Shown: positions 3,064-60,844 of the stretch, piece by piece
How the letters are laid out: every line of letters begins with the position of its first letter
Position numbering within the stretch: position 1 is the stretch's first letter
Virus record (IMG/VR): IMGVR_UViG_3300032307_000622
Location: 1 to 64,000 of that record
Reading direction: 5' to 3' (one strand)
Source of the DNA: a virus
DNA: 64,000 nt
The notes under the pieces: model-generated
What the model saw: the letters and a program-made list of their open reading frames with translations, nothing else
Database searches by the model: none
Told to the model about the DNA's origin: nothing
Translations under genes and position numbers: made by a program

Positions 3064-3135
3064 TCCTCACTAGCTCAACGGCAGAGCAACGAGCTGTTAA
3101 CTCGTGGGTTCCTAGTTCGAATCTAGGGTGGGGAG
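3064..3135 (+). tRNA. tRNA-Asn(GTT)
   Basis: Cloverleaf; acceptor TCCTCAC/GTGGGGA; anticodon arm ACGAG-CTGTTAA-CTCGT; T loop GTTCGAATC. Confidence 0.93.
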
Positions 3136-3231
3136 CTAATGGTTCGGCTTGCACCACTCTTCGGGTATAAGATAAAAGCAAGCAAACTTTAATAGCATGG
3201 GTAAGGCTTATAGTCAAGCCTATGCTATTTT

Positions 3232-3305
3232 GGCTTCGTAGCTCAGTTGGTTAGAGCACCACCCTGTCACGGTGGGGGTCGTGGGTTCAAGTCCCATCGG
3301 AGTCG
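3232..3305 (+). tRNA. tRNA-Asp(GTC)
   Basis: Acceptor GGCTTCG/CGGAGTC; anticodon loop CTGTCAC; GTTCAAGTC. Confidence 0.93.
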
Positions 3306-3309
3306 CTTT

Positions 3310-3382
3310 GGTCCGTTGGAGTAGCGGTTATCTCGTCTGCCTTTCACGCAGAAGATCGCCAGTTCGAATCTGGTACGGACTA
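3310..3382 (+). tRNA. tRNA-Glu(TTC)
   Basis: Acceptor GGTCCGT/ACGGACT; anticodon loop CTTTCAC; GTTCGAATC. Confidence 0.92.
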
Positions 3383-3383
3383 C

Positions 3384-3457
3384 GCCGCCTTAGCTCAGTT
3401 GGCCAGAGCATCCGCCTTGTAAGCGGAGGGTCGTGAGTTCGAATCTCACAGGTGGCT
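3384..3457 (+). tRNA. tRNA-Thr(TGT)
   Basis: Acceptor GCCGCCT/AGGTGGC; anticodon loop CTTGTAA; GTTCGAATC. Confidence 0.93.
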
Positions 3458-3471
3458 CAGATAGGAAAAAT

Positions 3472-6311: not shown

Positions 6312-7146
6312 TGCCCTAGTATATTCTTATAAAAATAAAAACTTAAAGTTAGTTGTGGATGCACTCTTAAATAATACAAAGAGTGATATTTATATTAATG
6401 TGTTTGATCAAAATCCTATAGATAGAACTTCTCTTTTTAAAGACCAGAGAATAGACTACGAGTATATATTTTGGGATAAAATTTATAGCCCCAGCGAAAA
6501 GAAGGGGGATACTATTAACAGGTCAACCGCTGACTACATCTTGGAGATATCAGATGATTGCCTTCTTTCTGATGGCTGGGACATCGAAATGATAAAGTTG
6601 GTAGAGTCTAAAAATTGCGTTGTCTCTGGAAACTCTAATATCAAGCTAGTAAAAAATGGACCATTCTTTTTCTCTACAACAGAAGAAACATCTGGGCAGT
6701 CTATCTTAACAAATTATATAGATAAAGATTTTACATTTACTAAAAATAAAATTTGGAAGTCTATACAATATCCATATTTTTTAAAGTATAATGGAGAGGC
6801 AGAATTATTAAGTTTAAACTTTTTTCGTGCTGGGTATGATATATATAGTGCACCAGTGCAAACTTATACAAATTTAAATCTTAAGACTTTCGATCGATTG
6901 TATGTGCCATTTTCAAAAGATCATAACTACAATATGGTTGTAGACATAATTAATGATGAGTCTATTGACGAGACCAACAACACTCCCAGAACAAAAAAAG
7001 ACTTTTTTAGGTTCCACGGCATAGATGATTTTAAAATAAAAAGGCTGCCATACTCAACGAATGACGTGCAATATGACCCATATGGCCTTAAGTTTCAAGA
7101 CATAGATGCCAGAAAGTTTATATCCAAGACAAAGTCTATTTACTGA
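6295..7146 (+). CDS. GT-A glycosyltransferase resembling hydroxyproline GlcNAc-transferase (GlcNAc/Gnt1 family)
   Basis: DDCLLSDGWD and YxGExELLSLxxFxxGYDIYS resemble the family's DSH..F...WD and GEE......GYDIY motifs. Confidence 0.55.
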   Translation: MMTRIDALVYSYKNKNLKLVVDALLNNTKSDIYINVFDQNPIDRTSLFKDQRIDYEYIFWDKIYSPSEKKGDTINRSTADYILEISDDCLLSDGWDIEMIKLVESKNCVVSGNSNIKLVKNGPFFFSTTEETSGQSILTNYIDKDFTFTKNKIWKSIQYPYFLKYNGEAELLSLNFFRAGYDIYSAPVQTYTNLNLKTFDRLYVPFSKDHNYNMVVDIINDESIDETNNTPRTKKDFFRFHGIDDFKIKRLPYSTNDVQYDPYGLKFQDIDARKFISKTKSIY

Positions 7147-14671: not shown

Positions 14672-14953
14672 GTGAAAAACGAATGGAAAGATCACGGCTC
14701 TTGTCGTAACTATGACACAAACTTCTTTTTTGATAAATATGAAGAAAGTGTTACCCTAAGACCTGCAATTGATCAACTCTGTAACTCCTGTCCAGTAGTA
14801 AGGCAATGCTTTGCTATAGGAATTTCCCAAAAAGAGTGGGGAGTCTGGGGCGGAGTTTATCTTGAAAATGGAGAGATATCTAGAGAGTTTAACAGACATC
14901 GAACCAAGGTTGAGTGGGCTGAAAAATGGAAAAACTTAACGATGGATAACTAA
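14672..14953 (+). CDS. whiB: WhiB-family Fe-S transcription factor
   Basis: W...C...FF...CxxCPVxxxC...GVWGG motif. Confidence 0.9.
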   Translation: MKNEWKDHGSCRNYDTNFFFDKYEESVTLRPAIDQLCNSCPVVRQCFAIGISQKEWGVWGGVYLENGEISREFNRHRTKVEWAEKWKNLTMDN

Positions 14954-21513: not shown

Positions 21514-21664
21514 TTCAGAAAATATCTGGGCAGAGATAGCAAAGATTAACAGAGAGCTTGACAGAATAGATATTGAGCTTAGTATGAACAGAGAAGCTCT
21601 TCAATCAATTGAAATTGATTTAATGCTTTTTAAAACTGAACTTGACTATCTTACAGAGGGCTGA
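21503..21664 (+). CDS. small coiled-coil protein
   Basis: MNTDSENIWAEIAKINRELDRID... Confidence 0.5.
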   Translation: MNTDSENIWAEIAKINRELDRIDIELSMNREALQSIEIDLMLFKTELDYLTEG

Positions 21665-21731
21665 TAGCTCAGCTGGTTAGAGCAGCGGACTCATAATCCG
21701 TCGGTCATGGGTTCAAGTCCCATTCAGCCCA
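21658..21731 (+). tRNA. tRNA with CAT anticodon (probably Ile2, otherwise elongator Met)
   Basis: Acceptor GGGCTGA/TCAGCCC; anticodon loop CTCATAA; GTTCAAGTC. Confidence 0.9.
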
Positions 21732-21736
21732 CAGAA

Positions 21737-21809
21737 GCTCCTGTATTCCAATGGTAGAGAAAGAAGACTTAAAATCTTTACAGTGTGGGTTCGAATCCCA
21801 CCAGGAGTA
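21737..21809 (+). tRNA. tRNA-Leu(TAA), short variable arm
   Basis: Acceptor GCTCCTG/CAGGAGT; anticodon loop CTTAAAA; GTTCGAATC. Confidence 0.85.
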
Positions 21810-21854
21810 CAAAAAATGGTATAATATTTCCTGTTATAGATTGGATCCCAAATT

Positions 21855-29421: not shown

Positions 29422-29892
29422 CTACTCCGTAGCAATACTCTCTAGTATCCTATTATGCTTCACTATATTACATTTACCATGAGCAGGTCTAACATTCTCT
29501 AAAGTATCATCTCCACCCCTAGACAAAGGTATGACATGATCGATATGCAAAGACTTCTCCCAGCCTGGTTGACCTGTACCACGAGGAGCGTCTAAATCTA
29601 TGGCTCCGCCACAAAGATGACAATCCGTGCCATAAGTCTCTATAACCATATTAGCTGAGAAATAATCTTTTTTAGGGTTAAAGCCTTGACGAAGGAGTTT
29701 CTTAAATCTGGTGCCATTTCTAATCTTACGGTTAGTCCTGGTATACTCCCTAATTCGAATTTTCTTTTCTGGACGTTTACGATATTCTTTCCAGTATTCT
29801 CTCATAGCCTCCATACAAGGTTCACAAAAGTCATCCTTGTACTTACGTCTGTGATCATCATGACCAGCTTTAGTTCCACATTTAGGGTGCAT
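29422..29892 (-). CDS. HNH endonuclease
   Basis: CHLCG, HIDHVIPLSRGG, N...AH..CN motifs. Confidence 0.9.
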   Translation of the reverse strand: MHPKCGTKAGHDDHRRKYKDDFCEPCMEAMREYWKEYRKRPEKKIRIREYTRTNRKIRNGTRFKKLLRQGFNPKKDYFSANMVIETYGTDCHLCGGAIDLDAPRGTGQPGWEKSLHIDHVIPLSRGGDDTLENVRPAHGKCNIVKHNRILESIATE

Positions 29893-30739: not shown

Positions 30740-31714
30740 TTAGTTAAGAATTACTACGTCAGCAATGGTAGCAAACTGTGATGTATTGATAGATTCGATA
30801 ACTGTCTGTGTTGCTAGATCAACTCTTAGAATCTTTGCATCATCCCAGTTCTGTGCACCATGGGTAAGCTCAAATGTTTCTGATCCCTTAGCATTAGCAA
30901 ATACTAGGATCTCTCCATTAAGGATAACTCCACCACGTAGGAACTTGTCTTCAGCATTTACAATGTACTTCTTAGATACTCTATTAGTAGCTAGATCCAT
31001 TGTAACGATCATACCCCTCTGGGATCCAAATGAGTATAGCTTTCCATCGTGGATAAGAATGTCATGACATGCGTAATCAAGGTTAGCAAGTTTTGTTGCA
31101 TTTGTCAAGTCCTTGTCCATAACAAATATTTCTGATCTCTTCTGGTATCTATTGTGAGCTAGAACATAGACATTGTCTCCATCTACGGTAACAGCGTTAA
31201 GGTGGAAGGTATCCATTGTGTTCTTAGGATCCGAAGGGTATGTAAGGGTAGCTTCCCTATCCATAGTCTTAAAGCTAAAGTGAATCTCTTCCTTAGTAGA
31301 TACATTAATTCTTGTGATAGTGTCATTGCTTGTATTTGTTCTAAAGATATATCCATCTGAATAGGTAATCTCATGAACATGTGGAACACCTGATGTTGAG
31401 ATAGTCTCAATATACTGATAAGTATTTTCATCAAATGCAACAATATTGTAATTTGAAGCTACAAAGATCTTTCCTTCACCAGTAGTAATACCAAATGGAA
31501 GGAATGCTAATTCTCTAGGCTGAGCACTAATCTCATCAGTATCCTGGGTTGCAAATACCCCACGAGGTTGTGGTCTACCATCTGTTGGTCTAGCATCTAG
31601 TTCTGGGGAAAAAGGAACTGAGTTCGTAATAGTCTTAGTCTCAGGATCTAGAACGAAAAAGGAATAACGGTTATTGTCTACTTTGTGATAGACGGAAGTA
31701 AGTAGTAGTTTCAT
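30740..31714 (-). CDS. beta-propeller protein
   Basis: Repeated blades with H-containing turns (HVHEI, HLNAV, CHDI, FLRG); leaderless. Confidence 0.6.
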   Translation of the reverse strand: MKLLLTSVYHKVDNNRYSFFVLDPETKTITNSVPFSPELDARPTDGRPQPRGVFATQDTDEISAQPRELAFLPFGITTGEGKIFVASNYNIVAFDENTYQYIETISTSGVPHVHEITYSDGYIFRTNTSNDTITRINVSTKEEIHFSFKTMDREATLTYPSDPKNTMDTFHLNAVTVDGDNVYVLAHNRYQKRSEIFVMDKDLTNATKLANLDYACHDILIHDGKLYSFGSQRGMIVTMDLATNRVSKKYIVNAEDKFLRGGVILNGEILVFANAKGSETFELTHGAQNWDDAKILRVDLATQTVIESINTSQFATIADVVILN

Positions 31715-31799
31715 GTTTAAATTATACCATCATTTCTGCGAATTTTTTATTGACTTTCGTAATGGAAAGTGTTATAATGCAAGGGCTGTCGCCATGTTT

Positions 31800-31912
31800 G
31801 AGGGGGAAACTAGAACCAACGACAATTCCAGTCTCCCCCTCTGTGATAGCCAGCCCAACCCCTCAGACCGATACGCTATCACTCTTGACAGGGAGTAATC
31901 TCAACCTGCCAA
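31800..31912 (-). ncRNA. three-hairpin structured element A
   Basis: Three consecutive stems after the 31923 stop; G-U pairs favour the minus strand; paralog at 32672-32769. Confidence 0.5.
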
Positions 31913-31922
31913 ATCTATTTAG

Positions 31923-32132
31923 TTATGATACAGAACTTGCCTTACGAAGTGTATCAAGGCTGACAGAGTCAATGAACTTGCCGTTCTTGCGGTATACAAT
32001 TCGTTCTGATGTTCCATAACGAGTGTTCCATACCTCTAGGTAAGGAATAACATCTCCTTCACGCTTAGCCTTCTTCGTCACCTTAGTTAGACGCTTTGGC
32101 TGAGCCTTCTTGGCCTTTGGAAATACTGCCAC
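31923..32132 (-). CDS. small basic hypothetical protein
   Basis: Lys-rich; GTG start with AAGGAG SD. Confidence 0.6.
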   Translation of the reverse strand: MAVFPKAKKAQPKRLTKVTKKAKREGDVIPYLEVWNTRYGTSERIVYRKNGKFIDSVSLDTLRKASSVS

Positions 32133-32193
32133 TTTTTTCTCCTTGTTGTTTATGTATTAATTGTAGACTATTCAGTTATGTTTGTCAATAGCT

Positions 32194-32451
32194 TTATCCA
32201 AGCAAATCATCTAGAGTTTCAAAGCCTGTGTCTTCTATCTCCATGCCAGTTAGAAAAAGATCGAAAGTTTCATTAACAAACTTTTCAGCCATTGTACTTG
32301 GCTCTACGATCCTGTTTGCCAGCATGTATGCTAGGGGCAGTCCGATATCGTTATACTCAATAAAGTCCTTAAACTCTTCGTCATCACGATAGTTGAGCCA
32401 GAGGTCTCCCAGTATCTCTGTCTTACTAGTAAAAGAAGTTGTTTCCAAAAT
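32194..32451 (-). CDS. hypothetical protein
   Basis: ILGDLWLNYRDDEEFKDFIEYNDIGLPLAY; start uncertain. Confidence 0.6.
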   Translation of the reverse strand: MLETTSFTSKTEILGDLWLNYRDDEEFKDFIEYNDIGLPLAYMLANRIVEPSTMAEKFVNETFDLFLTGMEIEDTGFETLDDLLG

Positions 32452-32632
32452 CTTCTTCCTCTCTCTCATACCTTGCGGCATCAGCAATTTCCATAAATCT
32501 TCTATAAGTGACATTTGGTGCTGACCTTGCTATGTATTCTCCAACTTGGTCAAGGTCTAGTGTCACATTGTTTACGAGTTTAGATAATTGCTCTGCCACC
32601 TTTTCATTATCGCTTTTTGTTCGCTTTCCCAA
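32426..32632 (-). CDS. hypothetical protein
   Basis: EKVAEQLSKLV...LDLDQVG; promoter TTGACA-17-TACAAT upstream. Confidence 0.6.
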   Translation of the reverse strand: MGKRTKSDNEKVAEQLSKLVNNVTLDLDQVGEYIARSAPNVTYRRFMEIADAARYEREEEDFGNNFFY

Positions 32633-32671
32633 TTATACAAATCTCCTGTGCTTATTGTACCAAAAATGGTT

Positions 32672-32769
32672 GGGGGTGTCAAGAGTGAAAGTAGGAAATC
32701 TCTCAACACCCCCTCAGTGCCCAGCTACCCAACCAGGCACCTTACTAGGGAGCTAGGCTCAACCTAATA
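32672..32769 (-). ncRNA. three-hairpin structured element B with anti-RBS loop
   Basis: Stems CTTATTAGG/CCTAGTAAG, GTGCCTGG/CTGGGCAC and GGGGGTGTTGAGAG/CTCTTGACACCCCC; last loop ATTTCCTACTTTCA. Confidence 0.55.
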
Positions 32770-32775
32770 AGATTA

Positions 32776-33123
32776 TTAAACTACATCTTCCCAGTACTTG
32801 GGCAGTTCATCGAAATACTGCTTTAGCCTATCTGACATCTTATCCCAATACTCTAGCTTGAAGCCGTGTAGGCCATACCATGTGTCAACCTCAGTCCTGA
32901 AGTATTCATCCTGGTTTAAACCCAAGGCCACAATCTCCTCACCTGTTAATCTAATAGGGTCATTGCTGTACTCTTGAGAGTTACCCTCATTATACGTGTA
33001 GACATGAATGCACCAGCTAGCAGGGTCCCAATATGACTCCCCTCCAGCATCTAGCTCCTCTGGCATATAGATGTTTAAATCATAGTCAATAAGAGTCTTA
33101 TCTCTGTTCTTGTTCCTATACAT
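32776..33123 (-). CDS. hypothetical acidic protein
   Basis: ORF; the MYRNK start overlaps the upstream stop. Confidence 0.6.
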   Translation of the reverse strand: MYRNKNRDKTLIDYDLNIYMPEELDAGGESYWDPASWCIHVYTYNEGNSQEYSNDPIRLTGEEIVALGLNQDEYFRTEVDTWYGLHGFKLEYWDKMSDRLKQYFDELPKYWEDVV

Positions 33124-33508
33124 ACTTTGTAACATAGCCGTAGCCCTCACATTCTTGGCAGTCTGGGTCTCCCCATTCGTTGCCACGCTTCTCTAACATT
33201 TCTTCGTCTTCACTGTAGCACTCACATTCTGTTTCTACAGATAGGATAACTTCATAGTCTGTGTCATCTTGCCACGGTACCTCGCAAACATGATAACTAA
33301 TCCTATTAACCCAAGCAATACCTGCCACTAGCAGGCTAGACATGTCTCCGTCCACCCATGTCCAAACATAGTGTGGGTCTAGGGATTTGATGTACTCCCA
33401 TTCCTCACCATAGGTTTCAAAGTTGTAATTGTTGGTGGGCACGAGGTGATTTTGCTTTGGCTTGAATTCTTCTTCAAAAGCATCCCAACCTTGGATTTCT
33501 CTAAACAT
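33116..33508 (-). CDS. hypothetical protein
   Basis: FETYGEE...VWTWVDGD...VNRI motif; C-terminal CxxCxG. Confidence 0.7.
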   Translation of the reverse strand: MFREIQGWDAFEEEFKPKQNHLVPTNNYNFETYGEEWEYIKSLDPHYVWTWVDGDMSSLLVAGIAWVNRISYHVCEVPWQDDTDYEVILSVETECECYSEDEEMLEKRGNEWGDPDCQECEGYGYVTKYV

Positions 33509-33532
33509 TTCCTACTCTACTTTCTACTGGGG

Positions 33533-33763
33533 TTATTTCCTAAAGACATTATAGCCTGACATACCGACTTTGTCAACAGCAGTTCTCTGAACATCCATCC
33601 AAGCAGTCTCACCAAAGAAATACTTAGGTCGCTGCCCTTCAATAACTAACTTATAAAAGTCATAGTAGCGATCAGACTCCATAACCTGGACGGTATTGTA
33701 GTGATAGATCCTGGTCCAAGTGGTATCTTTTACACTAGGCTTTTTATCAACATAAATCTGCAT
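33533..33763 (-). CDS. hypothetical protein
   Basis: KYFFGETAW.DVQR motif. Confidence 0.6.
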   Translation of the reverse strand: MQIYVDKKPSVKDTTWTRIYHYNTVQVMESDRYYDFYKLVIEGQRPKYFFGETAWMDVQRTAVDKVGMSGYNVFRK

Positions 33764-35400: not shown

Positions 35401-35553
35401 TTATCTACTTTCTTTAGGGTAGGTCTATTATGACATGACCCTCAGACATTTTGTAGTTTCTGGGAAAAAAGTTATGCGGTCGTAATTATTTTTTTATCTT
35501 AATCTATATGATTATTGAAAACCTGGGCGGCTCAATTTCGATCCATGAATGGA

Positions 35554-36590: not shown

Positions 36591-36780
36591 GTTTTTCTAC
36601 TTTCTGTTAGGGGATTTCTAATAATCTAATTATAGGGTTACCCTCCGACATTGTCAAGGATTCAGGGCAAAATAATTAATCTTCGTAAATAACAGTTTGG
36701 TAACAAAATGGGGGCCGCCCAAATCCACCCACTCAGTATTTGTGATCACGAGATCTTCAGCTTTTGTGTGGGTGGCTGGG

Positions 36781-37264: not shown

Positions 37265-37333
37265 AATTTATTTCTACTTTCTTTCAGGGTAATTACATTA
37301 TACATAGGGGGTAGGACATTTATTTAGTTGTGG

Positions 37334-37725: not shown

Positions 37726-38274
37726 TTAGACTGCTTGTTCTTCTTTGAGGTACGAGTATACTCCGCACTTTGCTCTCTCACAATAGTCCTCATTAGTTAT
37801 CTCACGGACCTCTTGGAAAGTCAGAGTCAAAGTATTGTCTCCGTAGGTTGTAGCAAAGGTTTGGTTATCAAGATTTATGATGTAGATACCCTCACAGAAT
37901 AAATCATCATTCTTGAACTCTGGGTCTAGCACTAGCGGCACAGGGTCAGTAGCGTTGACAATTACCTCAAGAATACCAGCACCAGTATCTCTAGTTAGGC
38001 TAGGATAGTCCTTACTAAACCTCTCGCCATCTTCCAGACTTCCCATACCATCTTCTCTAAAGTAGTTGGCATAGATTTTCTTTAGCTCCTCATCACTTGC
38101 CTGATAGGTCAGGTGTAGGTCAAAGTTTTTCTCTAGCTTTTCGATGTTCGTTGGCTTAGACAAAAAGTTTACAATAGTGATACCCTGCCCACTTGGATAG
38201 TGGTCCCATTGACCATACTGGGCTACTACTGTCTTTCCGTTGTAAATTACCTCTGTAATTCCTCTAGTTCCCAT
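37726..38274 (-). CDS. hypothetical protein (MGTR...AQYGQWDHYPSGQG family)
   Basis: Start at MGTRG after AGAAAGTAGG. Confidence 0.7.
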   Translation of the reverse strand: MGTRGITEVIYNGKTVVAQYGQWDHYPSGQGITIVNFLSKPTNIEKLEKNFDLHLTYQASDEELKKIYANYFREDGMGSLEDGERFSKDYPSLTRDTGAGILEVIVNATDPVPLVLDPEFKNDDLFCEGIYIINLDNQTFATTYGDNTLTLTFQEVREITNEDYCERAKCGVYSYLKEEQAV

Positions 38275-38379
38275 TTTCCTACTTTCTTTTGTTGGTGAGA
38301 TTATTATACATTGGGGGTCAGACATTTAGGTTCTTAATTCGTAACTGTTATAAAGCTGTGATCTGGGCCGCCCTAAAGG

Positions 38380-38444
38380 TGGCCAGTTTTTCGTCATGGC
38401 CAGGACGTGGTCCACATGTTAGAAAGGATAAGAAGTGTGGACCA
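38380..38444 (-). ncRNA. anti-SD hairpin plus pseudoknot copy 6
   Basis: TGGTCCACA-[CTTCTTATCCTTTCTAACA]-TGTGGACCA, then CGTC-CT-GGCCA-T-GACG-AA-AAAC-TGGCCA. Confidence 0.6.
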
Positions 38445-38463
38445 TCTTGCCCCTATGCAAGAT

Positions 38464-38535
38464 CTATTTTCTGGAATATACAAATATGAGACATGCTATT
38501 CCTAGGAAGTACAGAGCCCAGTGATACAGCTCCAT
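38464..38535 (-). CDS. 23-aa hydrophobic peptide
   Basis: MELYHWALYFLGIACLIFVYSRK, coupled (TAATG) to the upstream stop. Confidence 0.4.
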   Translation of the reverse strand: MELYHWALYFLGIACLIFVYSRK

Positions 38536-39254
38536 TACTTTTTACTCGCACTAAACAATATGTCATTGCGAGCAAATACGCATTGTCCGCAGGTAACGCA
38601 GGCGGAACCCTTGTCGCTAATTAGCGGAAGTTTCTTAGCATTCTCAGGGCACGGTATTGCAGACTTGACGGTGATAGACAACATCCGCTCTTTACCGCTA
38701 GCAAAATTGTTAGCAAGATATGCAAGCTTTACGCCACTATCTTTCTTTAGCTTTTCTGCCAGCTGCCAGTTGTCATCATCAGTTGAGAAGTATAGTGCAA
38801 GGTTGTCAACATCGCTAAGAATTGGAACAGCAAAATCTGACCTCGTGTATACCCAGAATTGAATTTGGGGGAATGCCTTGATTACATTCTTCCAGGCCTT
38901 AGTATAGTCTTCACTAAAGAAGTCACCATCCCAGTGAATTCGAAACAGCTTTTCTGCATTACGCTTGTCACAATCTTTCTCAAACTCTTGAATCATTTGA
39001 TAAATTAGAATTTCCATTTCCAATTCATCTGCATTACGTAGCAGGTCCCAATTGTTTATGAGAACAGCTTTTACGCCCTTGTAGACTTTTTCGAGCTTGC
39101 CTGCATAACAGACTTTCTCGCATACACTTGTTGCTCCAGGGCAGGAATAAGCTTTCCCTGAAGGAAGGCCAAAAGTGTTCGCAATAGTTGGCGTTTTACC
39201 ATTTGGAGAGACTGCATTAGTTACCTTTCGGTCTTTAGAACGGATTAGGGGCAT
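38535..39254 (-). CDS. Gp88-like Cys-rich (radical-SAM-related) phage protein
   Basis: CPGATSVCEKVCYA, FRIHWDGDFF, FWVYTR, CPEN, CVTCGQC motifs. Confidence 0.7.
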   Translation of the reverse strand: MPLIRSKDRKVTNAVSPNGKTPTIANTFGLPSGKAYSCPGATSVCEKVCYAGKLEKVYKGVKAVLINNWDLLRNADELEMEILIYQMIQEFEKDCDKRNAEKLFRIHWDGDFFSEDYTKAWKNVIKAFPQIQFWVYTRSDFAVPILSDVDNLALYFSTDDDNWQLAEKLKKDSGVKLAYLANNFASGKERMLSITVKSAIPCPENAKKLPLISDKGSACVTCGQCVFARNDILFSASKK

Positions 39255-57940: not shown

Positions 57941-60844
57941 ATGGCAACAGTAAACAAGAATTTTAAGGTCAAGCATGGCTTGGTCGTTGAAGGTACCACA
58001 GGTACCATTGCTGGTGAGGACATCCTTACCAAAAAGCAAGAAGATATTGATTATATTATTGATCAAGTTGGTGGCTCTGGTGTTCCTACTAATACCCCAA
58101 ATACCCTAGTCCTTCGTGATGAAAACGGAGACTTCGCTGCTAACGATATTACAGCAAATGAAATTAGCATTGGCTCAATAGGTCGCATTTACGATGACGG
58201 TGGCGACATGGTCATTGACAATCTTGATGGCAACGATGTTACGATTAATGCTGATGATATTAGACTTAATGCACAAGATGATGTTCGTGTCAGTGCAAAC
58301 GATTTAGTTCAGCTTACATCTAATAATGGAGACATTGAGCTGGTTGCAAATGGCAATGTCTACATTGGGACTGACAATAGTCCAGAATATGTGGTAGTTG
58401 CCAAGGGAACACTTGACAGCCACATTGGTGATGTAACTGTTGACGGCACTGCAGGAAACACTGTAACTGACAGAATTGCTACTGCTAAGCAGGAAGCTAT
58501 TGATGCTGGTTCTTCAGACGTAACCACTCACTCAAACCTTACAACTGGAGTTCACGGTGTAACTGGTGATGTTGTTGGAACAACTGACACTCAGACACTT
58601 ACAAACAAGACTCTTGGTTCTGGAACTAATCTTTCTGTAAACCTAGACATGAACGGTAACAAGATTGAAGATCTTGGAACACCTACTGCTGGTACAGATG
58701 CTACAACTAAGAACTATGTAGACGATGGAGATACCGCAACTCTTGGTTCCGCCAACTCCTACACAGATGACGAAATTACTGCACTAGACACTTCTCTAAA
58801 GGCTTATGCAGACCAGGCAGAGTCAGATGCAATTAGCTCAGCAGCTTCAGCTGCAGCAGCTCTATATGCACCACTTGCTGGAGCAACCTTTACTGGTGAT
58901 GTTATCCTTCCTGGAGACCCTACCCAGGCTCTAGGTGCAGCTACAAAGCAGTACGTAGACGCAGTTGCAGAAGGACTACACGTTCACGCATCTACAGTTG
59001 CAGCTACTACCGCAAACGTGGATCTTGCAACAGGTGGATTGCTAACAATTGATGGCGTAGGTCTTAATGAAGACGAGCGTGTTCTTGTTAAGAATCAGTC
59101 AAATGCAACTCAGAACGGTATCTACCTAGCCAAGCCTGGTGCTTGGGTACGTGCAGATGACTACAACTCTGCTGCAGAAATTCAGGGTGGTGACTTTACC
59201 TTCGTAACTGGCGGTAACACTTACGCAAATACTGGATGGGTTCAGACAAATGTTGTAACAACTCTAGGAACATCCACAATTAACTTCGACCAGTTCTCTG
59301 GTGCTGGAGAATATGTTGCAGGTACTGGTCTAACTCTAAATGGAAACTCATTCGCTATTGATGATACCGTTACAGCTACCAAGTCTTACGTAGATGGCGA
59401 AATTTCAGACCTAGACGCTGCTGCTCAAGGCTATGCAGATGATGCAGAGGTTGATGCAAAAGCGTACACTGATCAGCGTGAAAGTGCAATCACAACTGCT
59501 TACCAAGGTTATGCAGATAACGCAGAAGCTGATGCAAAGCTTTACACAGATCAGGAAATTTCTGCTCTAAACACTGATGACATTGAAGAAGGTCTTACCA
59601 ACGAATACTTCACAGATGCTCGTGCGAAAGGATCTGCTGCAGATCTTTTGGTAAATGCTAATAAGACAAACATTACCATTACTGGAAACGAAGATGGTCT
59701 AACCATTACTGCAGAAAATGGTGTTGCTCAGTCTACCACAGACGATTTGACTGAAGGATCAGCAAACCTATACTTCACAGATGCTCGTGCTCAGGCTGCA
59801 GTTGCAGGAGATATAACTACTGCAATAAACGCTCTTGACACTGATGCTATTGAAGAGGGCGTAGGCAATCTTTACTTTACAGATCAGCGAGCACTTACTG
59901 CTACATCTTCAGCATATGACCCAGCAGGTTCTGCTCAGGGTGCTTATGACAATGCAGTGTCTTACACAAACACAACGCTTGAAAATTACACTCCAACAAA
60001 CTCGCTAGATTCAGTAGTTGATAATTTTGGATTCCTCAAGCAAGAAGATCTTACAGGCTATGCAACAGAAACCTATGCTAATAATGCTGCAAATACAGCA
60101 CAGCAAAATGCAGAAAGCTATGCAGATTCCAAGATCAGTGATTCCTCATCTGCCTCAGACAAGGTTTGGTCCGCATACAAGACAAGCACTGAGATTAGTC
60201 TTGCTCAGGCAGCTGCAGAGCTACACGCAGATAACGCAATTGCTGCTCTCGTAGATGCTGCACCATCAACTCTAGACACTCTAAATGAGTTGGCTGCAGC
60301 ACTTCAGGATAACCCAGACATCATTTCTGACCTTCAGGATATTGCTGCTGGAAAGCAGGATACACTAACTGCTGGAGCAAACATTGACATTACAGGGGCA
60401 ACAATCTCTGTAACTGGTCTAGACACTAACGATGTTTCTGAGGGTACAAACCTGTACTTTACAGACCAGAGAGCAATTGATGCAGTTCAGAATACAACTC
60501 CAGTCTTCTCAGCAGTTGATATTGATTCAGTTGCTAAGCAGGTTGCAGCAAGTCTTGAAGCATCAACAGCAGGACTTCAGGTAGCATATGCCTGGAACAA
60601 GTCAGAATATCGTTCAGCAGAATTCCTTGTAAAGGTTGAAACCTTGACAAACTCTGAAATTTCAAAGATTCTTCTGACACTTGATTCTTCAGACAACATT
60701 GCAATTACTGAATATGGAATTGTTGGAACAAATGGCTCAATGTCATCTGTTTCAGCAGGTATCTCAGGATCAGATGTACAACTTGAGGTAACAACCACTA
60801 ACAATAACTCAGTAGTTACTGTTATGGGAACTCTACTAGCATAA
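57941..60844 (+). CDS. long tail fibre protein
   Basis: 967 aa; NLYFTDxRA, ATKxYVD and LDTLNELAAAL repeats; RVLVKNQ...NGIY. Confidence 0.8.
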   Translation: MATVNKNFKVKHGLVVEGTTGTIAGEDILTKKQEDIDYIIDQVGGSGVPTNTPNTLVLRDENGDFAANDITANEISIGSIGRIYDDGGDMVIDNLDGNDVTINADDIRLNAQDDVRVSANDLVQLTSNNGDIELVANGNVYIGTDNSPEYVVVAKGTLDSHIGDVTVDGTAGNTVTDRIATAKQEAIDAGSSDVTTHSNLTTGVHGVTGDVVGTTDTQTLTNKTLGSGTNLSVNLDMNGNKIEDLGTPTAGTDATTKNYVDDGDTATLGSANSYTDDEITALDTSLKAYADQAESDAISSAASAAAALYAPLAGATFTGDVILPGDPTQALGAATKQYVDAVAEGLHVHASTVAATTANVDLATGGLLTIDGVGLNEDERVLVKNQSNATQNGIYLAKPGAWVRADDYNSAAEIQGGDFTFVTGGNTYANTGWVQTNVVTTLGTSTINFDQFSGAGEYVAGTGLTLNGNSFAIDDTVTATKSYVDGEISDLDAAAQGYADDAEVDAKAYTDQRESAITTAYQGYADNAEADAKLYTDQEISALNTDDIEEGLTNEYFTDARAKGSAADLLVNANKTNITITGNEDGLTITAENGVAQSTTDDLTEGSANLYFTDARAQAAVAGDITTAINALDTDAIEEGVGNLYFTDQRALTATSSAYDPAGSAQGAYDNAVSYTNTTLENYTPTNSLDSVVDNFGFLKQEDLTGYATETYANNAANTAQQNAESYADSKISDSSSASDKVWSAYKTSTEISLAQAAAELHADNAIAALVDAAPSTLDTLNELAAALQDNPDIISDLQDIAAGKQDTLTAGANIDITGATISVTGLDTNDVSEGTNLYFTDQRAIDAVQNTTPVFSAVDIDSVAKQVAASLEASTAGLQVAYAWNKSEYRSAEFLVKVETLTNSEISKILLTLDSSDNIAITEYGIVGTNGSMSSVSAGISGSDVQLEVTTTNNNSVVTVMGTLLA

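Follow-up and report, generated by a model that had tools for sequence, protein, structure and literature searches.

A three-hairpin RNA family of phage genomes with a loop complementary to a start-codon tag of upstream genes

The virus record IMG/VR IMGVR_UViG_3300032307_000622 comprises 116,302 bp with a G+C content of 39.8% and a 123-bp terminal repeat; the window analysed here is its first 64 kb (positions 1 to 64,000). The minus strand of this window encodes a complete element of three hairpins, array B (32669–32773), which is a well-supported member of a new, strongly covarying structured RNA family without a match in Rfam. The open loop of its third hairpin contains a core, CUACUUUC, that is the complement of a tag, GAAAGUAG, found immediately before the start codons of genes lying upstream on the same strand. 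Our preferred reading, held with moderate confidence, is that array B acts as a 3' untranslated region (3' UTR) RNA which pairs with this private ribosome-binding site (RBS) of early genes and represses their translation. A divergent paralogue, array A (31797–31915, minus strand), is located close by.

Array B and its RNA family

A preliminary description based on the sequence alone had noted two paralogous three-hairpin arrays on the minus strand, positioned just after stop codons, and both are confirmed as real. Array A folds at −62.0 kcal/mol (z −5.8) and array B at −53.7 kcal/mol (z −4.7), each into three hairpins, and none of 200 shuffles folds as well as either. In a sliding fold of 110 nt across both strands of the whole 116,302-bp genome (mean −20.4, standard deviation 5.8), array A ranks first and array B second. 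The proposal that G-U pairs favour the minus strand is borne out, as the plus strand attains only −37.1 and −37.8 kcal/mol for A and B, respectively (z −2.9 and −2.4). Stop codons precede the arrays by 3–8 nt (open reading frames, ORFs, 32776–33186 and 31923–32132). The hairpin 1 core thought to be common to the two, AGGTTGAG-N3-8-CTCCCT, occurs exactly twice in the window, at 31890–31907 and 32747–32765 on the minus strand, against an expectation of 0.01. The sequence statements that hairpin 2 has a TTGGG-containing loop and that hairpin 3 starts with GAGGGGG in both copies also hold. At gathering thresholds, Rfam 15 returns six tRNA matches in the window and nothing at the arrays; with E values up to 10 across 31500–33000, it yields two chance matches elsewhere (U6 and TeloSII), the P1 c4 family being included in the library. 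A tRNA-like identity was also considered and rejected, ARAGORN finding nothing at the arrays.

Array B lies 3 nt after the stop codon of a 136-aa ORF. Its hairpin 1 (32741–32771, minus strand, as are all coordinates in this paragraph) consists of an outer stem, a 2-nt bulge and an inner GAG...CUC helix in which G-U-Y-GAG / CUCC is conserved; six of the seven outer pairs show compensatory changes, and none of 44 sequences deviates in the inner pairs. Hairpin 2 (32717–32740) combines a covarying outer stem with an apex that is invariant in sequence, GUUAGGGGUAGC in the family and GGUUGGGUAGC in this genome. Hairpin 3 (32672–32713) has a 14-bp stem, GGGGGUGUUGAGAG / CUCUUGACACCCCC, around an open loop of 14 nt, AUUUCCUACUUUCA (32686–32699), that holds the core. 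Across the family this stem takes the form GGGG(G)UGUCAAG / CUUGACACCCC(C), its apical pairs covary and the open loop spans 12–15 nt. The loop sequences are CCUA/AUUA in hairpin 1, GGGG in hairpin 2 and UUUCCUACUUUC in hairpin 3.

A homologue of the 136-aa ORF (60–69% identity) was identified in five viral contigs, and in each of them a three-hairpin array follows directly after its stop codon. A covariance model, R1, was built from four B-type sequences without copy A. Together with a pattern scan it gave 27 B-type matches, 18 of them distinct. R1 scores array B at 96 bits (85.3 bits with model R2) and detects copy A at 44.7 bits with E ∼1e-10 (74.9 bits with R2), as expected of the paralogy proposed at the outset. 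In an alignment of 19 viral-contig sequences, which was fitted to the model and hence leans towards structure, 98.6% of the cells pair and 23 of 36 pairs carry compensatory changes; none of 500 shuffles reaches the observed pairing, and slid controls pair at 38–51%. An independent treatment of four sequences with MAFFT and RNAalifold recovers the same three hairpins. A metagenome scan was keyed on the inner stem of hairpin 1 and the apex of hairpin 2 only, and was thus blind to hairpin 3. It returned 85 stretches, and among the 80 loci listed 57 matched the model, 44 of which are distinct. These 44 sequences are 98.8% paired, with compensatory changes in 18 of 35 pairs and 0 of 500 shuffles reaching this level. 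The conservation of the scaffold anticipated in the preliminary description is thus visible as covariation in the relatives, with 18–23 compensatory pairs, and U-G and G-U pairs recur in a way that assigns the structure to the gene strand.

Where whole records were searched, those of ten relatives, among them a complete genome of 109,629 bp, proved to hold a single copy each, and this genome two. Members with other loops were sought with a 14-nt word from hairpin 2, which gave 84 stretches and 69 new loci for scanning; one further true member, of B type, and no member with a new loop were present among the 69. A 14-nt word from hairpin 1 gave at least 119 stretches, 80 loci of which were scanned; setting aside three weak matches, at least two true distant members, L137 and L156, were recovered. 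A catalogue of 8,495 candidate viral RNAs (PMC10690425) may already list the array motif anonymously. In five of the ten relatives' records (G001–G004 and G008; loci L026, L013, L016, L002 and L036) the array is found ∼0.5–3.5 kb from a contig end; assemblies may break there, or a genome terminus may lie there.

The 3' end of array B coincides with a promoter-like sequence for the next genes, TTGACA-17-TACAAT (32654–32682, minus strand; 11 of 12 matches plus TG). Its −35 box, TTGACA, lies within the 3' arm of hairpin 3, an arrangement shared by all relatives inspected, and the −10 box 17 bp further on is TACAAT or GATAAT. As a message started at this promoter cannot contain the hairpins, the RNA structure is possible solely on transcripts arriving from upstream, where two overlapping ORFs of 130 and 136 aa (32776–33508, minus strand) would yield a message bearing array B as its 3' UTR. 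Judged from this layout, two expression units would meet at the element. Neither array is picked up by the terminator scan. Array B reads AACCAUUUUU, with a U run 5 nt from the stem, and array A has no U run; a U-rich run 3–6 nt after the stem occurs in some relatives and is not conserved, and in neither A nor B is a G+C-rich hairpin followed at once by a U tract in the manner of an intrinsic terminator. The ORFs neighbouring the arrays have no match in Pfam or PHROG, and no separate small-RNA promoter was seen upstream of either array.

Loop 3 and the tag before start codons

The loop core CUACUUUC is retained in all 18 B-type sequences from viral contigs and in 41 of the 44 metagenome sequences chosen blind to hairpin 3; of the other three loops, two have CUACUUUU instead, and in the third the core is missing its final base. 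The 8-mer complementary to this core, GAAAGTAG, ranks first among 33,170 8-mers in 87 kb of pooled upstream sequence. It is present in eight copies in this genome: five before an ATG, one as the loop's own complement and two elsewhere. The five tagged genes are all on the minus strand, with starts at 38274, 37264, 36590, 35400 and 33508, and the tag lies 4–9 nt before the ATG. At 38274 the RBS GAAAGUAGGAAA (38275–38286) directly abuts the ATG, is complementary to loop 3 over 12 nt and forms a duplex of −17.1 kcal/mol. The tag GAAAGUAG is situated 9 nt before the ATG of a 148-aa ORF (tag 37274–37281), 6 nt before that of a DUF932 gene (36597–36604) and 4 nt before that of a 63-aa ORF (35405–35412). 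The fifth tag belongs to the leader of the very operon that ends in array B (33507–33524), which reads GAAAGUAG and then AGUAGGAAAU up to the ATG at 33508. This leader offers two overlapping sites complementary to loop 3 (duplex −14.9 kcal/mol), and the complementarity extends over 10 nt at 33507–33516, touching the ATG. Complementarity to sequences before the 38274 gene and at the start of the 33508 gene had been proposed from the outset; it proves broader than was claimed, the core mirroring a tag that is family-wide.

The distribution of the tag was surveyed at the 18 distinct loci, covering 118 kb upstream and 115 kb downstream of the array and disregarding the array's own loop. Forty-four copies on the same strand are upstream of the array and none is downstream; a single copy is on the other strand. 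An ATG follows 0–9 nt after the tag in 42 of the 44 copies, most often at 6 nt. The metagenome set presents the same picture, with 60 tags upstream, none downstream and two on the opposite strand, and an ATG within 0–10 nt in 52 of the 60. The spacing of tag and −10 box ranges over 10–24 nt, and tagged genes without a promoter also exist. The tag thus holds its place relative to the start codon and behaves as part of a ribosome-binding site. It resembles an extended Shine-Dalgarno sequence in which one G is replaced by U; canonical AGGAG sites are also present in the genome. In every case the tagged gene closest to the array, 725–959 nt upstream of it, is the one that opens the operon ending there, and in all six relatives with enough upstream sequence the array comes after the stop codon of such an operon (3 nt after it here). 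Duplexes of the loop with the five leaders of the window range from −10.8 to −17.1 kcal/mol, compared with −6.5 to −9.4 kcal/mol for a generic 16S tail.

Two further elements, ACCCYUAA and ATGTC, are conserved in the leaders and promoters. ACCCYUAA lies directly 5' of the tag, and the hairpin 2 apex is complementary to it in 18 of 44 leaders; 500 shuffles of the apex average 2.3 such leaders and never exceed 7. Each match spans no more than a 6-mer, and the apex present in the window is a poor fit. ATGTC occurs directly after the −35 position in early promoters (36629–36657, 33548–33576 and those before 38274, 37264 and 35400, as well as in L002–L021), often with a C-rich run between it and the −10 box; among 8-mers upstream of the arrays, AAAATGTC takes third place in frequency. 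This shared promoter element may be a regulator site or the mark of a promoter subclass. A separate group of hairpins is found 3' of a GP88-like gene (38380–38470, minus strand): a small hairpin with the loop AUAGGGG and then a hairpin with the C/U-rich loop CUUCUUAUCCUUUCUAACA. The grammar is that of hairpins 2 and 3 of array B, a G-rich loop and then a C/U-rich one, and neither R1 nor R2 matches there.

Proposed action and alternative explanations

According to the proposed mechanism, array B would be made, over ∼105 nt, as the 3' untranslated tail of the last operon in a block of small genes. Hairpins 1 and 2 would serve as a scaffold and hairpin 3 would display the open loop of 12–15 nt, so that the core CUACUUUC could pair in vivo with GAAAGUAG(G), the private RBS placed 0–10 nt before the starts of the upstream genes, among them the gene that opens the array's own operon. 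Such pairing would hide the RBS and translation of the whole gene class would be repressed. The array might act in cis, on the 5' leader of the message to whose 3' UTR it belongs, in trans, on the remaining leaders, or both. The hairpin 2 apex could make a second contact with ACCCYUAA just 5' of the tag, and the −35 box embedded in the hairpin 3 stem would set the element at the border of two expression units.

A number of observations weigh against this mechanism. The 44 and 60 upstream sites come from related phages and partly from the same samples, and are not independent events. In this genome alone, the complementarity is only modestly better than the shuffled controls against which it was to be judged: of 1000 loop shuffles, 83 yield a match of 12 nt and 25 equal the nine start-proximal sites observed. 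The strong evidence is that from the relatives. When all 177 start regions are ranked by duplex energy, the five tagged leaders are not at the top; so many purine-rich sites pair with the C/U-rich loop that energy has no discriminating power. No covariation between loop and tag was found, both being nearly invariant, and the L002-type, L021-type and CUACUUUU loop variants all face GAAAGUAG. The window's own hairpin 2 apex departs from the family sequence. Array A is a copy of the scaffold without an anti-RBS sequence, and L137 and L156 keep the three hairpins and the promoter without a matching loop: the loop of L137, UUAUUUCCUUUCG, pairs with its GAAAGAGAA leaders only with one mismatch, and that of L156 is AAUUGGG in a genome whose genes use mixed GAAAG-N-AG tags. 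The retention of the scaffold with other loops in L137 and L156 indicates that it is older than the anti-RBS loop, and hairpins 1 and 2 must then have a function of their own, at which the complementarity between the hairpin 2 apex and ACCCYUAA hints; the conservation of their sequences is weakly explained by repression.

Among the other explanations, it is unlikely that the element is purely a compound 3'-end structure, that is, a terminator, read-through insulator or exonuclease block at a terminator–promoter junction, whose match to the RBS tag is functionless and whose loop owes its conservation to a role as upstream element, at −38 to −52, in the next promoter. Such a structure would account for the position of both arrays directly 3' of stop codons and before promoters, for the location of the −35 box, which falls within the 3' arm of hairpin 3 wherever a member has a promoter, and for the persistence of the scaffold without an anti-RBS loop in L156 and copy A; unrelated strong hairpins at similar places in other intergenic regions of the relatives, and the U-rich run 3–6 nt after the stem in some members, fit as well. 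However, neither array is called by the terminator scan, and the U run is displaced in B, unconserved and missing from A. Other strong promoters of the genome do not have CTACTTTC upstream, and the L156 promoter is kept without it. It is very improbable that an invariant 8-mer of the loop should by chance be complementary to the top-ranked upstream 8-mer, and the covarying pairs that flank the loop point to selection for an exposed RNA loop, not for a DNA site. This last consideration also bears on the notion that GAAAGTAG is a DNA site bound in either orientation by a phage regulator, which would repress the early units by binding downstream of the points where they start and would switch on the next promoter through the inverted copy at ∼−45. 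The sole reverse copy does lie just upstream of a −35 box, and the stoperators of L5 are asymmetric repeated sites with an orientation bias (PMC3203893). Yet the tag keeps a constant distance to the ATG (mode 6 nt) and not to the −10 box (10–24 nt), it also precedes promoterless genes and the flanking stem covaries as RNA, all of which makes this explanation highly improbable. A search for L5-type stoperators was equally unrewarding: CTTGACACCCC is present once in 116 kb, matches with one or two mismatches are scattered and mostly inside genes, and the stem sequence displays no stoperator-like spread.

The remaining explanations retain a role for RNA and are both improbable. The hairpins could be sites for a protein or for the polymerase that act in cis on transcription, as in lambda nut or HK022 put, with hairpin 1 and perhaps hairpin 2 recruiting a factor for read-through of hairpin 3. 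With the end of a gene, a small hairpin and a large hairpin in succession, and with two paralogous copies, the arrangement is reminiscent of nutL/nutR and putL/putR. Invariant sequence in the interior of hairpin 1 (bulge plus GAG/CUC) and at the apex of hairpin 2, within outer stems that covary, is what specific recognition would lead one to expect, and the hairpin 1 core is identical in A, L137 and L156 despite their differing hairpin 3. On the other side, no candidate binding protein was found, the ORFs around the arrays being devoid of Pfam or PHROG matches; the relatives have one copy and not one per early operon; the downstream genes possess a strong promoter of their own, so that read-through is not needed; and the complementarity of loop and tag is left unexplained. 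Alternatively, the element could be a modular small RNA in which hairpin 3 is an exchangeable guide, A and B being aimed at different targets and A being under antisense control. This comes closest to the preliminary description, which envisaged a conserved scaffold with exchangeable loop guides. That idea is weakly supported and holds loosely: A, B, L137 and L156 share the scaffold, the hairpin 3 apex differs in each of them, including the two distant relatives, and a good plus-strand promoter faces array A. Conversely, hairpin 3 of array A is base-paired throughout, up to a 4-nt loop, and has yielded no target class, array A is unique to this genome, the loop of the B family does not vary, the hairpin 2-word search produced no new-loop member in 69 loci, and no promoter for a separate small RNA was seen.

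Genomic setting and known systems

Array A is composed of hairpin 1 at 31885–31912, hairpin 2 at 31843–31882 and hairpin 3 at 31800–31841, and is preceded by the stop codon of a 69-aa ORF (31923–32132, minus strand). The core of hairpin 1 is preserved, as is a G-rich apex in hairpin 2; a closed 19-bp stem with five G-U pairs and a 4-nt loop makes up hairpin 3, which lacks both the −35 box and the C/U-rich loop. No homologue was detected in any record searched, including the whole records of the ten relatives. Its confinement to this genome identifies it as a lineage-specific duplicate, probably a decayed copy that amounts to a stable 3'-end structure only. The plus-strand TTGACT-17-TATAAT reported in the preliminary description is indeed present at 31750–31778 (11 of 12 matches plus TG, a consensus match only), and an antisense transcript across array A is possible. 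Promoter-like sites stand back to back at 31720–31778, where this plus-strand sequence accompanies an extended −10 site for a minus-strand gene encoding a 324-aa beta-propeller protein.

Small minus-strand ORFs, which follow sigma-70-like promoters and for the most part match no family, make up a block (∼44.2 to 29.2 kb) that we infer to consist of early genes and that has both arrays towards its 3' end; an HNH endonuclease gene (29422–29892, minus strand) is at the end of this block. No record in the phage collection resembles the genome at the DNA level in either near or distant search mode, and the 324-aa protein used as a query retrieved no relatives. DNA of this uncultured phage is present in sequencing runs labelled freshwater or lake. 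The host is likely to be actinobacterial, because the genome carries a WhiB-family gene (PF02467, 48.9 bits; 14684–14857, plus strand), the DUF932 and GP88 proteins have their best matches in actinophages and −10 boxes lie 7–8 nt before the ATG of many plus-strand genes. TATAAT occurs within 22 nt of the ATG in 14 of 89 plus-strand ORFs of at least 100 aa, often ending 7–8 nt before it, which suggests leaderless messages, common in Actinobacteria. Six tRNA genes (Asn, Asp, Glu, Thr, Met and Leu) form two clusters on the plus strand (3064–3458 and 21658–21810). A replication origin was considered and rejected, as the cumulative GC skew merely tracks the coding strand. Other strong hairpins are found in relatives 3' of homologues of a 106-aa gene (L009 11440–11480; L017 reverse ∼2498–2668; L021 reverse ∼6399–6549), the one in L009 having a GGGGG/CCCCC stem around TTGACA and then a U-rich run; the corresponding site in this genome bears a promoter alone.

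Several known systems share individual features with array B. Antitermination sites such as lambda nut and HK022 put act as RNAs that bind N-type protein or RNA polymerase and suppress terminators downstream; a resemblance to them is suggested only by the position of the arrays and the invariant hairpin 1 core. The c4 antisense RNA of phages P1 and P7, which Citron and Schuster are said to have described in 1990, reportedly has loops that pair at the RBS of phage genes within the same transcription unit. Like array B, c4 is a phage-encoded structured RNA whose loops are directed at RBS sequences; unlike array B, it lies upstream of its targets, is processed out and serves one operon and not a gene class, and Rfam gives no match here. 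In the icaR message of Staphylococcus aureus, a C/U-rich motif of the 3' UTR pairs with the message's own Shine-Dalgarno region, blocks initiation and creates a substrate for RNase III (PMC3868564). This resembles the cis mode proposed for the 33508 operon, although icaR is a single bacterial gene without a class-wide tag, three-hairpin scaffold or promoter overlap. The Cuckoo RNAs of Alphaproteobacteria consist of two to four adjacent hairpins with loops resembling anti-Shine-Dalgarno sequences (PMC4615179). They are chromosomal small RNAs and not phage 3' UTRs, every loop contains the CCUCCUCCC motif and the stems vary freely, whereas in array B only hairpin 3 is C/U-rich and hairpins 1 and 2 have invariant sequences of their own, which sets array B apart from the Cuckoo definition. 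T4 RegB is a protein nuclease that cuts GGAG in the Shine-Dalgarno sequences of early genes (PMC1702504); it likewise shuts off a class of early messages through their RBS sequence, while the effector proposed here is an RNA loop.

The closest parallel is provided by the start-associated sequences (SAS) of Cluster K mycobacteriophages, a short asymmetric motif whose conservation greatly exceeds that of an ordinary RBS and which is located, in one orientation, 3–7 bp before the ATG of 11–19 non-structural genes (Pope et al. 2011, PMC3203893). A 2024 paper still calls their role unknown, and in its account late transcription of Cluster K appears to start between genes 92 and 93 (PMC11373665). 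In Adephagia we find 16 forward SAS on the plus strand and one reverse copy, downstream of all 16, in the gap between genes 92 and 93. The reverse copy is the 10-nt loop of a sense-strand hairpin of ∼19 bp (z −4.1, against −1.9 for the other strand), located at 38620–38720 of L239 and ∼58619–58719 of the Adephagia record. Conservation of the gene 92–93 region extends to 137 Cluster K records. Two hairpins persist in a sample of 11 phages, where 8 of 37 pairs show compensatory changes; seven loops are anti-SAS, two are a close variant and two are another loop, and in Ekdilam the variant loop faces an unchanged SAS. No printed statement of a link between SAS and an antisense hairpin was found in the literature searched, which excluded subscription journals and supplements. 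A second SAS-type system, that of the Microbacterium phage AnnaSerena (PMC7302621), counts against a general rule: with ten forward sites, it has no antisense copy in the 49.9 of 56.7 kb scanned (the first 6.8 kb being excluded), and the layout is therefore not universal.

SAS and the array tag are alike in being conserved asymmetric motifs before the starts of a subset of genes in one orientation (44 of 44 and 60 of 60 upstream here). The motifs themselves, GGGATAGGAGCCC in Cluster K and GAAAGTAG here, are unrelated, as are the phages and the RNA scaffolds; the Cluster K scaffold has two hairpins instead of three, and SAS holds a canonical AGGAG core where the tag has a U. Some SAS are also preceded by an extended element, a 17-bp imperfect inverted repeat; the conserved elements noted near the tag are ACCCYUAA and ATGTC. 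Whatever the mechanism, the three-hairpin element represents a new structured RNA family, single-copy per ∼110-kb genome in the relatives and without an Rfam match. Tentatively, and with more doubt than confidence, it may be suggested that actinobacterial phages from unrelated lineages employ a private RBS code, in which a class-wide tag and a single antisense hairpin-loop copy at a unit border constitute an RNA off-switch. If so, a phage would time a whole gene class by an RBS tag and one small RNA loop instead of proteins, a compact and portable form of translational control over many genes at once, and the −35 box within the hairpin stem would physically couple the end of early expression to the start of the next unit. 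The off-switch would also explain the SAS of Cluster K and their lone reverse copy, unexplained since 2011, and would supply a concrete, testable mechanism for them in phages that can be grown and engineered in Mycobacterium smegmatis.

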